NCBI GenBank assembly: GCA_017654855.1
Contig: CM030338.1
Span: 1,612,001 to 1,676,000, forward strand
DNA length: 64,000 nucleotides
From: Podospora anserina
Lineage: Eukaryota
Reading direction: 5' to 3'
The notes beneath the pieces were generated by a model, which saw nothing but the letters and a program-made list of their open reading frames with translations, was not told the origin of the DNA and ran no database searches. Below are positions 29,597 through 34,539 of the stretch, one piece after another. A program made the translations under genes and the position numbers. The stretch's first letter is position 1. Every line of letters starts with the position of its first letter.

Positions 29597-29660
29597 TTTT
29601 CCCTGGTGGAGGACGCGGTAGGATTAAGATGGTGGTCGATTTCTTCCCCTGGTGGGGAGG
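29597..29660 (+). promoter_or_regulatory. Two tandem CUGGU-loop hairpins (SRE-like) in the 3' UTR of copy A
   Basis: TTTTCC-CTGGT-GGAGGA (29597-29613) and TCTTCCC-CTGGT-GGGGAGG (29642-29660). Confidence 0.6.
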
Positions 29661-30169
29661 CTAGGATGGCAAGTGTCATTCTAGATCATATTGTTATAAA
29701 CATATCTTTTTTTTCCATCAAGAACTAATACTATACCATACTTGTGCTAATTGTGATGTGATATCTATCATCGGGCTTCTTGTTTACCAGGCACCTTTTT
29801 CTTTAGGAACTTGGAGAGAGATATACCAACTGTAAAGACCTTGGCAGTACGTCTACAGATATTGTTTAAGGACGCTCCATCGTCTCAGCAATTTCATTGT
29901 TCATAGAACAAATTGAGTAGTACACAGACTAATCACACAGTACAACCACCAAAGCATTGTATCAACTGCATCCTATCATCAACAACTCCATTGCCAACCC
30001 TCACTACCCCCTCCCAACACCATTATTTAAGCGCCACCCTTTCCTCACATTCATCTTAGCTTCTTCTCATCATCATCAGTACATCCATACACTCGAGACG
30101 TTTTGACAAAGTCTCCCCCCTAACCCAAACCAAACTCTCAACAAACCAATCCACTTCACTTACACAACC

Positions 30170-30358
30170 ATGTGTGAATACGAGCAATAGTTCTTCGCCT
30201 GTGGGTGTCCTGCTGGCTCTGTCCAGGTGTCCTACCTCTGCGCTGAGGTCAGAATTGCTGGCTGAGCTTGCCAGAGCCCTCAACCGATTATCAGGCGATA
30301 GCACATGTGTGCTGTTCATACTCCTCCTCCTCCTAAGAAGAGACGGAGTTACAAGTAG
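30170..30358 (+). pseudogene. M-C-x8-CGC family copy B with three in-frame stops (TAG 30188, TGA 30263, TAG 30299)
   Basis: Manual translation MCEYEQ*FFACGCPAGSVQVSYLCAEVRIAG*ACQSPQPIIRR*HMCAVHTPPPPKKRRSYK* aligns with copy A. Absent from the ORF track. Confidence 0.7.
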
Positions 30359-30385
30359 GTGAGTTGTTGAGATAACATGACAGTA

Positions 30386-30401
30386 CTTCCACAGGTGGGA
30401 G
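30386..30401 (+). promoter_or_regulatory. CAGG-loop hairpin (SRE-like) 3' of copy B
   Basis: CTTCCA-CAGG-TGGGAG, 6-bp stem including one G-U. Confidence 0.5.
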
Positions 30402-30888
30402 GGATAAGACGTGTTTTGGTAGAATGCCTACAGGTAAGTAAGTGAATGATGGTGATCAACCAAACCCTTTTTTTTCTTTGGGAATTTTGATACCAAAAAC
30501 GAATGAATTTCTTTTTTCTTGGACTTCTATTATCTTTTATCCTTGCTGTAATTGTGCTTTGTGATTACGATACTATATATTTGACCTCATATATGTCTTT
30601 GTCTCTGTCTGACTGTTGACGGAAGACTTCAAGGACTTGCAAAGACTCCTCTTACCTAACTCAAGACCACTGAGTAAATGTCCTTTTACCAAATGTTACG
30701 AGATTTACACAAAATTTAAGTGTGTATTAAAGCTGGTGCAGTATGGTAGGTACTAAACAATGGGCTTACAAAGTCACAGATCATAAAAGTCACACAGATC
30801 AATCAATATACACAACAAACACATGAACTGGCACACAATATTTCTTTCGAAAGATCTTTTTTTATTTTGATCATCACCCCCACCACAG

Positions 30889-30903
30889 CTCCCACCAGGG
30901 GAG
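30889..30903 (-). promoter_or_regulatory. CUGGU-loop hairpin (SRE-like) 3' of copy C
   Basis: Minus strand CTCCC-CTGGT-GGGAG. Confidence 0.6.
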
Positions 30904-30995
30904 GGAGCTAGGTATTATTAGTATATTATGAACTTACCAGTCATGTCTCAAAGATGACTGACTGCCTTCTGCAAACTTAACAGAACCTCTCATCC

Positions 30996-31145
30996 TCATA
31001 TTTCTCGCAACAAGACAAAATATACTCGCGCATGAAAACCCACTCCACACAGACCCAAAGCCACATGGGCGCATTTCTCGGCGCGGACCACATGGCCGGG
31101 GATGATGCAGCCGCAGCCGTAGCAGTATTGGGTGTGAATGCACAT
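30996..31145 (-). CDS. M-C-x8-CGC family copy C (49 aa; C-terminus possibly frameshifted)
   Basis: Manual translation MCIHTQYCYGCGCIIPGHVVRAEKCAHVALGLCGVGFHARVYFVLLREI*; CAACATG context; TATATAAA near 31300 upstream. Below the ORF-track cutoff. Confidence 0.62.
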   Translation of the reverse strand: MCIHTQYCYGCGCIIPGHVVRAEKCAHVALGLCGVGFHARVYFVLLREI

Positions 31146-31879
31146 GTTGTTGTTGTTGTTGGGTGGTGTGGATGGATGCGAGTAAAGTGTTGTTGTGAGA
31201 GGGGAGAGATGATGTGGTGGTTTGTTACTTACCGGAAGTAGGAAATGGTGATGATGATGATGATGATGGGATGAGAGGATTTGAGGCGGGGAAGAGCGGG
31301 TTTATATATCTATCTGATGGGACAATGGATTGTGGTCGAATGAATAGTAGAGGCTTTGTCTTCCTTCGTGTTCTTTGGGTTCAAGTTCTTAAAATAGTCA
31401 GTGGCACTATTAAGAACAATGCTTTGTCTCTTCATCTTGCCTTCTGAGAAGGTACACAAAATAGGCTTATAGGAGAGGGTAGGTAGGTAAGTAAGCTTTG
31501 TTTTACAGGCATCTCAGCCTTAATAGCTCTCGTAGCAGTTCGCCCACATACTTGCTGCAAACAGATACGTCGCAATAACACACCTAGGTACGTCAGCAGG
31601 CCTTCTTCTAGGATCCAGTCTTTGAAGTTTGAAGACATCGTAAGAGCGCGGGTTGCGACACAGAACAGCATCTCTTCTTCCAGGTGTAGTAGGAAGTTGA
31701 TAAGCAGTCAAAGAAACAACGGCCGTTTCGTACATAGGTAGGTATCACATTCAAAATTCAATGGTCAAGAAGAGAAAATAAATACTCCAGAGGAAAAAAG
31801 TTTTTTTATTATATTAAATACGTCCAAAAATGATCAAATCATCAATCAACCCGACGAAGTCTCCTACCTCATCCCCTCA

Positions 31880-32285: not shown

Positions 32286-32480
32286 ATGGGTATCATGGAC
32301 CTAGTTCACTTGGGGTTTAAGCTTCTGGAGATGGGGCTTTTCATCGTATATGCGGTTGTGGCCTCCTGTATTTTGTATATTCTGTGGTTTACTGCCGTGG
32401 CAGTGGTGTTTTGGGTGCTACCGGAGACAATCGTAGTGCGCCGTAGACATATCCCGTTGAGATTTAGTCTCGACTTTTAG
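32286..32480 (+). CDS. Small hydrophobic (putative membrane) protein, 64 aa
   Basis: CACCATGG context, long hydrophobic stretch, upstream TCTATTTAAG at 32185 identical to the one before copy A. Confidence 0.35.
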   Translation: MGIMDLVHLGFKLLEMGLFIVYAVVASCILYILWFTAVAVVFWVLPETIVVRRRHIPLRFSLDF

Positions 32481-33158
32481 TTGGAGTCTGAAGTCAAGTT
32501 TTGTCAAGGATCTGGTTCTATAGACATGACCCAAGCTGAGTGAGAGCCAACAAAATAAAAACCCGAATTTATCAAAACATATCATCTACCTACGTTCCCA
32601 ATGTTACCTTGTGTATATCTACCAACGACTGTATTATCTCCCAGAACACGTACCCAGTGAATGTAATTTTAGAGATTACCTACCAGAGTACTGATGAAGG
32701 CATAACACCAAAGACTGCCGGCCATATAATGAGTATACCTCTGCTCTGGAGTTAAGAAGAGGTATCAGCAAGGAAACTCCGTATAAGTACCAACCAGCTT
32801 TTCAGCATTTCTTCCACGAACAGAAGCATATGCGGCTCCATGACGCCAATTATTGCAAGGGAAAGATCAACGGACTTGAAACAGAGTGAGTGATGTAGAT
32901 ACTTCAGTATTCTTCTCTATAAACGGTCATCATCCGTATTGATAATATCGTTATTCGTACCACAACATTATCCAGATGTCGGTCTACTTAAGCATCCTTG
33001 CCTTTCCGTCATGCCTCATCTCTTCTCTCATGACCATCATCAAACTCTCGAGCCTTTTTGATAGATAGGTATCTACCTACGTAAAGACTCAGACATCAAC
33101 ACTTCACCAACCCAACCAACCAAACCACCACCAACACCAACCACATATCTCATTCAAG

Positions 33159-33497
33159 ATGTTTGAATACTACGCCAACTACGTCTACTGCGGCTGTGAG
33201 GCTATTCCCCGCACAGAGAAAATCTGGACATGCCACTCTGTTACTACCCATCAGGTTCTTGAATGCTCCAACCCTGTTGTCGCGCCGAAAGCACGAGATT
33301 GGCCCTGCCCTATTCACCAGCCCGGTGTTCCCGATCCTCTGGACAAGGACAATGATGGGAAACTGGAGATCAAGCGGGAGAACAGGATCAGAGAGAAATT
33401 CGATTTTCTCACTCAAGATACTCCCAACCTGAATGACTCGGACGAAGAGGCAAGCGTGGAGGAAGGCAAAGAGGCAAGCGTAGAGCAAGGTAAGTAG
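33159..33497 (+). CDS. M-x9-CGC family copy D (112 aa, acidic tail with EASVExGK x2)
   Basis: MFEYYANYVYCGCEAIPRTEKIWTCHSVTTHQVLECSNPVVAPKARDWPCPIH...; same Cys pattern as the paralogues, first Cys replaced by Phe. Confidence 0.7.
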   Translation: MFEYYANYVYCGCEAIPRTEKIWTCHSVTTHQVLECSNPVVAPKARDWPCPIHQPGVPDPLDKDNDGKLEIKRENRIREKFDFLTQDTPNLNDSDEEASVEEGKEASVEQGK

Positions 33498-33506
33498 GGC
33501 CAAGTT

Positions 33507-33560
33507 AGGTAAGTAAGGTAAGTAAGGTAAGTAAGGTAAGTAAGGTAAGTAAGGTAAGTA
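33507..33560 (+). repeat. (AGGTAAGTA)6 tandem repeat directly after the copy D stop codon
   Basis: Six perfect 9-bp units followed by degenerate units, read directly. Confidence 0.92.
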
Positions 33561-34248
33561 AGGTATGTCAAGGCAAAGTAGGTGAGGCAAGTATTAATTA
33601 CTGTGTGATGACAACCAAAACATAAATGCAATAAAAACACTCTTTTTTATTTTTAACAACACTGTTCTTAACTCTGGATGACATATTTCTGACCGTAATC
33701 GTGTGTATTCTTCTCCTCAAGACCGAGGGATTAAAGATAAGGTAACTCGATGCCTCCATGCTGACCTGAGAATTGTAAATGTTTGCTTGAACCTCACCCT
33801 TACCTAAGTTACCTGAATTTACTAGAGACCTGCCGTTAGCCATATTGAACCATCCTGGGAAGTCCAGCTACAGCCTCTTCTCTGCAAAGTTAATTCTGCG
33901 CCTCAAGAGCCTACCTACCAAGCACCGTTTGTGAATGAAGCTATTTCAGGACTCAAGACAAAGCCCAATATACGGGGAAGATAGGAAGAAGAGAACAGAC
34001 AAAGACATCAATCCCTAATGTAATATCCCATCAGACAATCCCATTGTATATTCTCCGCTACACAAATCCCCACAGACTAACAACCAACTCTTCCACCCCA
34101 TCCATCTCACCACAACTTCTCATCATCGTCATTATCACTCACTCACTCAACCCCATCACCAATCTACCAACACCCACCACCTCAAGCAGGTAAGTATTTA
34201 CCCCCCCTTCCCCTCCCCCCCCACTCAACCCACAAACACCAGCACAAA

Positions 34249-34464
34249 ATGTGCATCTACACCTCCAACATCTGGGCCTGCGGCTGCGTGGTCAAGAACA
34301 AACCCGCCGTCCGCACCCATCCCTGCAGCCACGTTCTCCAGGGGGCCGCTTGCCCTACCCCGGCGGCAATCACTGTTCGGGCAGTTTACATTGATGGGAA
34401 GTGCTACCGTCATCATATGGAGCATAGGGGTCGTGAGCATCGTGGGGATGGGAGACATAACTAA
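34249..34464 (+). CDS. M-C-x8-CGC family copy E (71 aa); possible 5'-UTR intron 34190-34242
   Basis: MCIYTSNIWACGCVVKNKPAVRTHPCSHVLQGAACPTPAAITVRAVYIDGKCYRH...; CAAAATG context; GTAAGT..CAG just upstream. Confidence 0.72.
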   Translation: MCIYTSNIWACGCVVKNKPAVRTHPCSHVLQGAACPTPAAITVRAVYIDGKCYRHHMEHRGREHRGDGRHN

Positions 34465-34524
34465 ACTAACTAACTAGGTGGGTTGAGTAAAAAAGTGTTT
34501 GAGAAAAAGCTCTTCCTTTTTTCC

Positions 34525-34539
34525 TTCCCCTGGTGGGAA
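34525..34539 (+). promoter_or_regulatory. CUGGU-loop hairpin (SRE-like) 3' of copy E
   Basis: TTCCC-CTGGT-GGGAA. Confidence 0.6.

Follow-up and report, generated by a model that had tools for sequence, protein, structure and literature searches.

A conserved, hairpin-capable element in the 3' flanks of a cysteine-rich micro-gene array of Podospora anserina

Introduction

What keeps a 12-letter motif in place behind micro-genes whose proteins are only 25-35% identical to one another, and does that motif act in the RNA? We address this question for a 64,000-nucleotide stretch of Podospora anserina DNA (contig CM030338.1, positions 1,612,001 to 1,676,000 of the forward strand), hereafter the window, in whose numbering all positions are given. 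The window is fungal nuclear DNA, with GT..AG introns, TATA-type promoters and genes with HET and sacsin domains. At 29.1-34.7 kb it carries an array of five micro-gene copies, A to E, which have the pattern M-C-x8-C-G-C and further spaced cysteines. An earlier, sequence-only reading of this array had noted hairpins with CNGG loops behind copies A, B, C and E and had explained them as Smaug recognition elements (SREs), through which the SAM-domain protein Vts1 would control the array; its further suggestion that the microproteins are toxic or stage-specific is speculation. Our analysis points to a real, family-specific 3'-flank element, which probably acts at the RNA level and is probably compatible with an SRE.

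A conserved core in the 3' flanks

The element is centred on the core TCCCCTGGTGGG, which is confined to the array and occurs four times in the window against 0.04 expected. This 12-mer is the longest exact word common to four of the six units (the five copies and a further unit, F, described below), whereas the longest coding word is a 9-mer, common to three units. Such an excess, in a word that is also the longest one shared, argues for a selected element rather than chance. The word CCCTGGTGG is found six times, compared with 0.68 expected, a count that none of 100 shuffles reached; five of these occurrences lie inside the array and the remaining one (7559, minus strand) lies within coding sequence. 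Because the core is longer than any coding word and the proteins have diverged so far, the core is more constrained than the coding sequence (CDS) itself. Sequence identity ceases immediately outside the core, which speaks against gene-conversion tracts, and judging from these comparisons retention by selection seems a better account than either such tracts or drift.

The invariant columns of the alignment are those of the loop and the two innermost pairs (C11, C13, G15, G16, T17, G18 and G19), while the outer stem columns vary but remain pyrimidine on one side and purine on the other. Fixed loop and closing pairs, combined with a variable pyrimidine/purine outer stem, are as expected of an RNA hairpin that is read through its loop. 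The CTGGT centre is not palindromic, and its orientation relative to the gene is kept on both strands. Flank alignments and common words place this conserved, strand-specific element in a 3' flank that is homologous among the micro-gene units. Trained on the six sites, a covariance model gives them 27.5-34.3 bits, and no other place in the window exceeds 10.9 bits (E = 2).

The element forms part of a larger common architecture. The units have in common the promoter or leader words CATCATC and CAACACC, and their 3' flanks follow one order, in which a 5'-splice-site-like heptamer near the stop is succeeded by the hairpin, GGTGATGATCA, an A-run/T-run and TGTGAT. The word CTTTTTT is common to five of the six units. 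As delimited by flank alignment, the A-run/T-run block of unit E (GAAAACTTTTTTCTC) lies at 34610..34624 on the plus strand, and a similar form is present in the 3' flanks of A, B, D, E and F. This block is a putative poly(A)-site region, for which the end of one RNA contig (run X19) at 34626, beside the block, offers a weak hint.

The six hairpin sites

Hairpin coordinates are given here as stem / loop / stem. Copy A is followed by two hairpins on the plus strand, A1 (UUUUCC / CUGGU / GGAGGA; 29597-29602 / 29603-29607 / 29608-29613) and A2 (UCUUCCC / CUGGU / GGGGAGG; 29642-29648 / 29649-29653 / 29654-29660), which start 18 and 63 nt past the stop, respectively. Hairpin B, with a variant loop (CUUCCA / CAGG / UGGGAG; 30386-30391 / 30392-30395 / 30396-30401, plus strand), starts 28 nt past the stop of its copy. 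Hairpin C lies on the minus strand, 93 nt past the stop (CUCCC / CUGGU / GGGAG; 30903-30899 / 30898-30894 / 30893-30889), and hairpin E on the plus strand, 61 nt past the stop (UUCCC / CUGGU / GGGAA; 34525-34529 / 34530-34534 / 34535-34539). All the stems and loops that the sequence-only reading had quoted, including the CAGG of B, are indeed present on the sense strand after the stops of A (two), B, C and E, and the hairpin does change strand together with copy C. The list of that reading missed a sixth site, F, and the intact copy D is without one.

Site F (ACUUCUCCC / CUGGU / GGGAGGAGU; 31879..31901, minus strand) has a stem of 9 bp, the longest of the six, and ranks first in the covariance model, at 34.3 bits. 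Downstream of it, the flank can be aligned to the 3' module of the other units, and the family profile search found no family CDS or CDS remnant in the unit. Unit F (31650-32250, minus strand) shows a TATA-like site, a C/A-rich leader with CAACACC and CAACACT words, the hairpin and the full downstream module; this unit is possibly a family member that has lost its CDS or is non-coding. Counting G:U pairs, the stems measure 5-9 bp at all six sites.

RNA coverage of the sites

RNA evidence comes from four runs (coded X15, X17, X19 and X20) that were accepted as RNA solely from the spliced joints, GT..AG and CT..AC, that they carry in flanking genes. An X15 contig (29469-29638) reads from the CDS of copy A through hairpin A1 and ends 25 nt beyond it. 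An X19 contig (34411-34626) spans the stop of copy E together with hairpin E, which is also spanned by contigs of X15 (34474-34964) and X17 (34473-35197). Of the six sites, A1 and E are those that the contigs cover, the cover being continuous with the CDS or adjacent to it. Regions without cover in the four runs (among the pieces listed, A2, C, F and most of the B and D flanks) give no evidence either way.

A putative RNA stem-loop

The six sites are copies of one selected cis-element within the 3'-flank module, and the reading that we hold most likely, at about even odds, is that this element is an RNA stem-loop read by a protein. One fold is common to the six sites according to RNAalifold, with a stem of 6 bp under a CUGGU pentaloop. 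At each of the six sites the sense strand gives a more stable fold than its antisense, and G:U accounts for 6 of the 35 standard pairs; both are mild hints of RNA-level structure.

A number of observations weigh against a stem-loop of this kind. In the alignment 83.3% of the paired cells are able to pair, compared with 81.2% when the 3' letters are shuffled within columns (a value as high as the observed one arises in 182 of 500 shuffles), and the covariation score of 0.400 against 0.318 in the shuffles, 66 of 500 of which reach it, is not significant. Controls with slid partners gave 57-76% paired. That pairing is so close to the column shuffles is explained by a pyrimidine run facing a purine run, which pairs through composition alone. 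The stems were said to differ yet still pair, and the arms are as quoted, but the covariation that this implies is not distinguishable from composition. When the sequences are folded singly, F and B alone give the quoted hairpin. For A1 the hairpin is absent from the minimum free energy fold (z = +1.63), A2 is predicted in the register CUUCCCC / UGGU / GGGGAGG, a tetraloop with the C paired, C is predicted to fold as AGCUCCC / 9-nt loop / GGGAGCU, and E to adopt a shifted 12 bp stem with a 10-nt loop; in the preferred folds of C and E the GG of CUGG is paired. Among the hairpins of the earlier list, B is therefore predicted to form as quoted and A1, A2, C and E are not. With predicted registers that vary among copies, the loop that is displayed is uncertain, and the folding z-scores, from +1.63 to -1.99, are unremarkable. 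The six sites are moreover paralogous and non-independent, and the contigs give neither strand nor 3' end. Over hairpin E, the X15 and X17 contigs extend toward or into the next gene, so that the transcript bearing this hairpin is ambiguous and could be a read-through product or a long leader. Finally, the presence of the element does not track coding integrity: F, the best site, belongs to a unit without a CDS and B to a pseudogene, and the intact copy D has no hairpin in its flank, either by flank alignment or by the covariance model over the window; a (AAGGTAAGT)n repeat stands after its stop.

Alternative explanations

One alternative is that the sites are bona fide SREs, so that the SAM domain of a Vts1 orthologue binds CUGGU and recruits deadenylation or repression, and the array is a Vts1 regulon. 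We find this reading rather doubtful. Several SREs per target are typical, and copy A bears two elements. In the common fold all six sites agree with the formal SRE consensus, with CUGGU at five and CAGG(U) at B, where two transversions in the pseudogene leave CNGG intact and the hairpin is still predicted to fold. The accessible parts of PMC4053848 and PMC9893680 define an SRE by a CNGGN0-3 loop carried by a stem of no specific sequence. The known cases (Drosophila nanos and Hsp83, yeast Vts1p targets) resemble the present element in their short stem, their 4-5 nt CNGG loop with CUGG favoured and the occurrence of two copies in one gene, and also in their place in the 3' region of the mRNA, which is putative for the present sites. 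CUGG is also the best-performing SRE loop in what is accessible of PMC4053848, where G is preferred 5' of the loop. Vts1 is known in another Sordariomycete, M. oryzae, where it is a developmentally important SAM-domain target of a mitogen-activated protein kinase according to the available part of bioRxiv 10.1101/2023.08.19.553964. The present sites are, however, unlike SREs in having a fixed 12-nt core that includes the three closing C:G pairs (CCC/GGG) and loop positions 2 and 5, in arms that are always pyrimidine/purine, and in a C rather than the favoured G 5' of the loop. As a score for the sites we took the Boltzmann probability of a hairpin loop of 4-8 nt that starts with CNGG, following the principle of Chen et al. 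2014, which we re-implemented with constrained partition functions. At 25 °C and with 50-nt flanks this probability is 0.94 for F, 0.45 for B, 0.002 for E, 0.0013 for A2, 9e-5 for A1 and 4e-7 for C, so that the conformer is populated at only two of the six sites, neither of which belongs to a working gene. With 12-nt flanks A1 rises to 0.54; A2, C and E stay low over flanks of 12-80 nt and at both 25 and 37 °C. The summed score per kb of strand is 0.20 in the array against 0.12 in the whole window, a weak enrichment, and 35 of the 2160 CNGG sites in the window reach a probability of 0.1. The formal definition is in addition unspecific, with 71 CNGG hairpins with stems of at least 5 bp in the 64 kb window. 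As nearest-neighbour models ignore the geometry of a protein-bound loop, the low scores only weaken the SRE reading: a canonical Vts1-SRE regulon is possible, with thermodynamic scoring partly against it. It appears unlikely to us that the array represents the first family-wide SRE regulon to be defined in a filamentous fungus; in it, Vts1 would read an unusually rigid CUGGU stem-loop on the mRNAs of orphan, rapidly diverging cysteine-rich micro-proteins, and the CDS-less F transcript could serve as a decoy or non-coding member.

Two further explanations appear improbable to us. In one of them the core acts at the DNA level, as a site for a sequence-specific factor (for instance a multi-finger C2H2 protein) or as part of a G-rich pause or termination signal, and the hairpin is incidental. 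What is conserved is indeed a linear 12-mer rather than pairing, a pseudogene and a unit without a CDS both retain the element, and G-rich runs follow the core in all copies; CCCCT, moreover, is a core of the stress-response type, but it is missing from A1 and B. A DNA site would give no obvious reason for the pyrimidine-run and purine-run flanks or for the fixed orientation to the unit, and its G:U pairs would be C:A mismatches in DNA. The place of the element, moreover, is downstream of genes, and at A1 and E it is covered by RNA contigs. The other explanation, to which we give just as little credit, takes the element as an inert relic of duplication, or as linked to splicing and situated within a 3'-terminal intron or next to one, and not in the mature 3' untranslated region (UTR). 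A neutral relic is disfavoured by the drift of the CDS to about 30% identity while the 12-mer was kept. For a link to splicing speaks the abundance of GGTRAGT, the consensus 5' splice-site heptamer, which occurs 24 times in the window against 14.1 expected, with 14 of the 24 in the array; on the sense strand it is found 32 nt after hairpin B, about 30 nt before hairpin C and 15 nt after hairpin E. The 3' flanks also have in common a TGTGAT block, about 100-150 nt downstream, and the TGTGAT/CTGAC blocks that flank the element are branch-point-like. Yet the contigs that span A1 and E are unspliced at these heptamers beside the hairpins (29559 at A, in one run; 34476 and 34555 at E, in three runs), the same runs do show spliced joints in neighbouring genes, and the putative second exons, as read from sequence, are without similarity. 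The enrichment of GGTRAGT may reflect 3'-UTR introns, U1 sites or repeats.

Some other readings of the core were tried and rejected. By eye, a CreA site (SYGGRG) and a tRNA primer-binding site each fit only some of the copies, and the reading as an RNA polymerase III terminator was dropped in view of a T5 run inside unit A, upstream of its open reading frame (ORF).

The micro-gene copies

Copy A (29382..29579, plus strand) has 65 codons plus a stop and a cysteine-rich product of the form MC..Y..CGC.., found from the ORF list and as a match to the family profile; the X15 contig at 29469-29638 overlaps it. Copy B (30170..30358, plus strand) is a pseudogene, as its translation has three in-frame stops before the terminal one. 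It was found independently by a profile of the other four copies, A, E, D and C (E = 2.6e-5), and the same profile, run against all six frames of the window, found nothing beyond A-E. The pseudogene still shows X15 depth, in the bins 29908-30509.

Copy C (30996..31145, minus strand; ORF list and profile match) has 49 codons, and its C-terminal part does not align to the remaining copies. Its leader has a GTAAGT at 31233 on the minus strand, similar to one in the leader of copy E. A contig of run X20 matches up to 31162, just upstream of the start of copy C, and continues with 99 unrelated letters, which may come from a paralogue elsewhere in the genome or from a spliced leader. Copy D (33159..33497, plus strand; ORF list and profile match), with 112 codons, is the longest intact copy, and directly after its stop stands the microsatellite (AAGGTAAGT) x 8.7 (33487-33565). 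Copy E (34249..34464, plus strand; ORF list and profile match) has 71 codons and is overlapped by an X15 contig (34240-34423). It likely has a 5'-UTR intron, the candidate being 34190-34242 (GTAAGT ... CAG), and this contig starts at 34240, where spliced and unspliced forms would begin to share letters.

Relatives and known systems

The micro-proteins are of the kind of other orphan fungal cysteine-rich micro-proteins, for which there is no named family: they are small M-C-x8-C-G-C ORFs, present in tandem copies and near genes with HET and sacsin domains. Pfam gave no family for any of the four copies searched at E values up to 10. A protein homology search with copy E found no relatives, and the only relative, found with copy D, was a 79-amino-acid fragment of D, 96% identical. 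When the profile from A, E, D and C was run against 1.84 billion representatives, the single match (E 3e-4) was a repeat protein of 1077 amino acids, which we judged spurious. The ESM Atlas yielded only clusters of unnamed Ascomycota, whose values of 0.85-0.86 fall short of the level of evidence, and structure prediction for the micro-proteins was unusable (mean predicted local distance difference test score of 43).

Searches for the hairpin itself gave a similar picture. Rfam returned four matches over 28500-35500, none above chance (E 0.67-4.5), all far short of the gathering scores (15.6-18.5 bits, with 41-65 required) and all away from the hairpins, and a full-text literature search for the core string yielded, among the matches listed, primers or papers unrelated by title or abstract. 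A two-block pattern scan of metagenomes gave 49 loci, close to the number that we had estimated by hand for chance, with GC contents of 0.38-0.70; none of the 49 has an M..CGC or M..CGH micro-ORF upstream, and we rejected them as unrelated, since they have the look of prokaryotic or chance matches. Four of these loci (L002, L014, L030 and L034), apparently prokaryotic, show near-perfect CTCCCT-CCCCTGGTGGG-AGGGAG hairpins around the same core, which are probably unrelated intergenic hairpins.

A further precedent is the 3' stem-loop of metazoan histone mRNAs, in which one short conserved hairpin soon after the stop in all paralogues provides common post-transcriptional handling. The present element is similar in being a short, sequence-conserved hairpin, found family-wide shortly past the stop. 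It differs in sequence and loop, and here an A-run/T-run resembling an ordinary poly(A) region follows.

Neighbourhood of the array

Upstream of the array on the minus strand lie an ORF with a HET domain (21077-23131, E = 4e-30) and one with a sacsin domain (26821-27744), beside several long ORFs without a Pfam family, so that the neighbourhood is rich in orphan genes. At 28956 the RNA contigs of X15 and X17, from two studies, show a G-to-A difference, which could be a strain difference or editing. Within the array, at 32286-32480 on the plus strand, a hydrophobic micro-ORF of 64 codons has its own TATTTAAG box about 95 nt upstream and is covered by an X17 contig (32274-32471); its product is probably transmembrane, and neither a Pfam family nor a hairpin was found for it. 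Downstream of the array, at 35021-35923 on the plus strand, stands a gene resembling those for 3-hydroxyisobutyrate dehydrogenase (NAD_binding_2/NAD_binding_11), which has RNA contigs at the highest depth of the stretch despite one in-frame TAA at 35225-35227.

Discussion

Taken together with the weighing above, the 12-letter hairpin-capable motif is probably a shared regulatory tag on the messages of the micro-genes. According to the model that we propose, the micro-gene unit would be a lineage-restricted one in a filamentous ascomycete, consisting in order of a TATA box, a C/A-rich leader, a cysteine-rich ORF of 50-110 codons, the element, the GGTGATGATCA block and the A-run/T-run. The element would consist of a 12-nt core, UCCCCUGGUGGG, with a pyrimidine run on one side and a purine run on the other, and would be transcribed together with the gene. 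Acting most likely in the RNA, it would form a short stem-loop closed by C:G pairs, displaying (C)UGGU to a trans-acting RNA-binding protein, and the paralogues would in this way gain common post-transcriptional control of stability or translation. The SAM-domain protein Vts1 is the only named fungal candidate binder whose known specificity fits. The analysis shows the motif, its enrichment, orientation and position, its conservation beyond that of the CDS and RNA cover of two sites; action at the RNA level, binding by a protein and a regulatory effect are what we infer.

Should the element be merely a formal look-alike of an SRE, it would still serve as a useful caution, as in this window one CNGG hairpin is found for about every 1.8 kb of strand. 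Being more conserved than the CDS, the 12-nt core is a cheap and specific probe for further family members genome-wide and for the pull-down of a binder. If functional, the element would give a handle on the control of unannotated fungal micro-protein genes that have neither a Pfam family nor relatives among 1.84 billion representatives, and would offer insight into the targets of SAM-domain or other hairpin-binding proteins outside yeast and animals.

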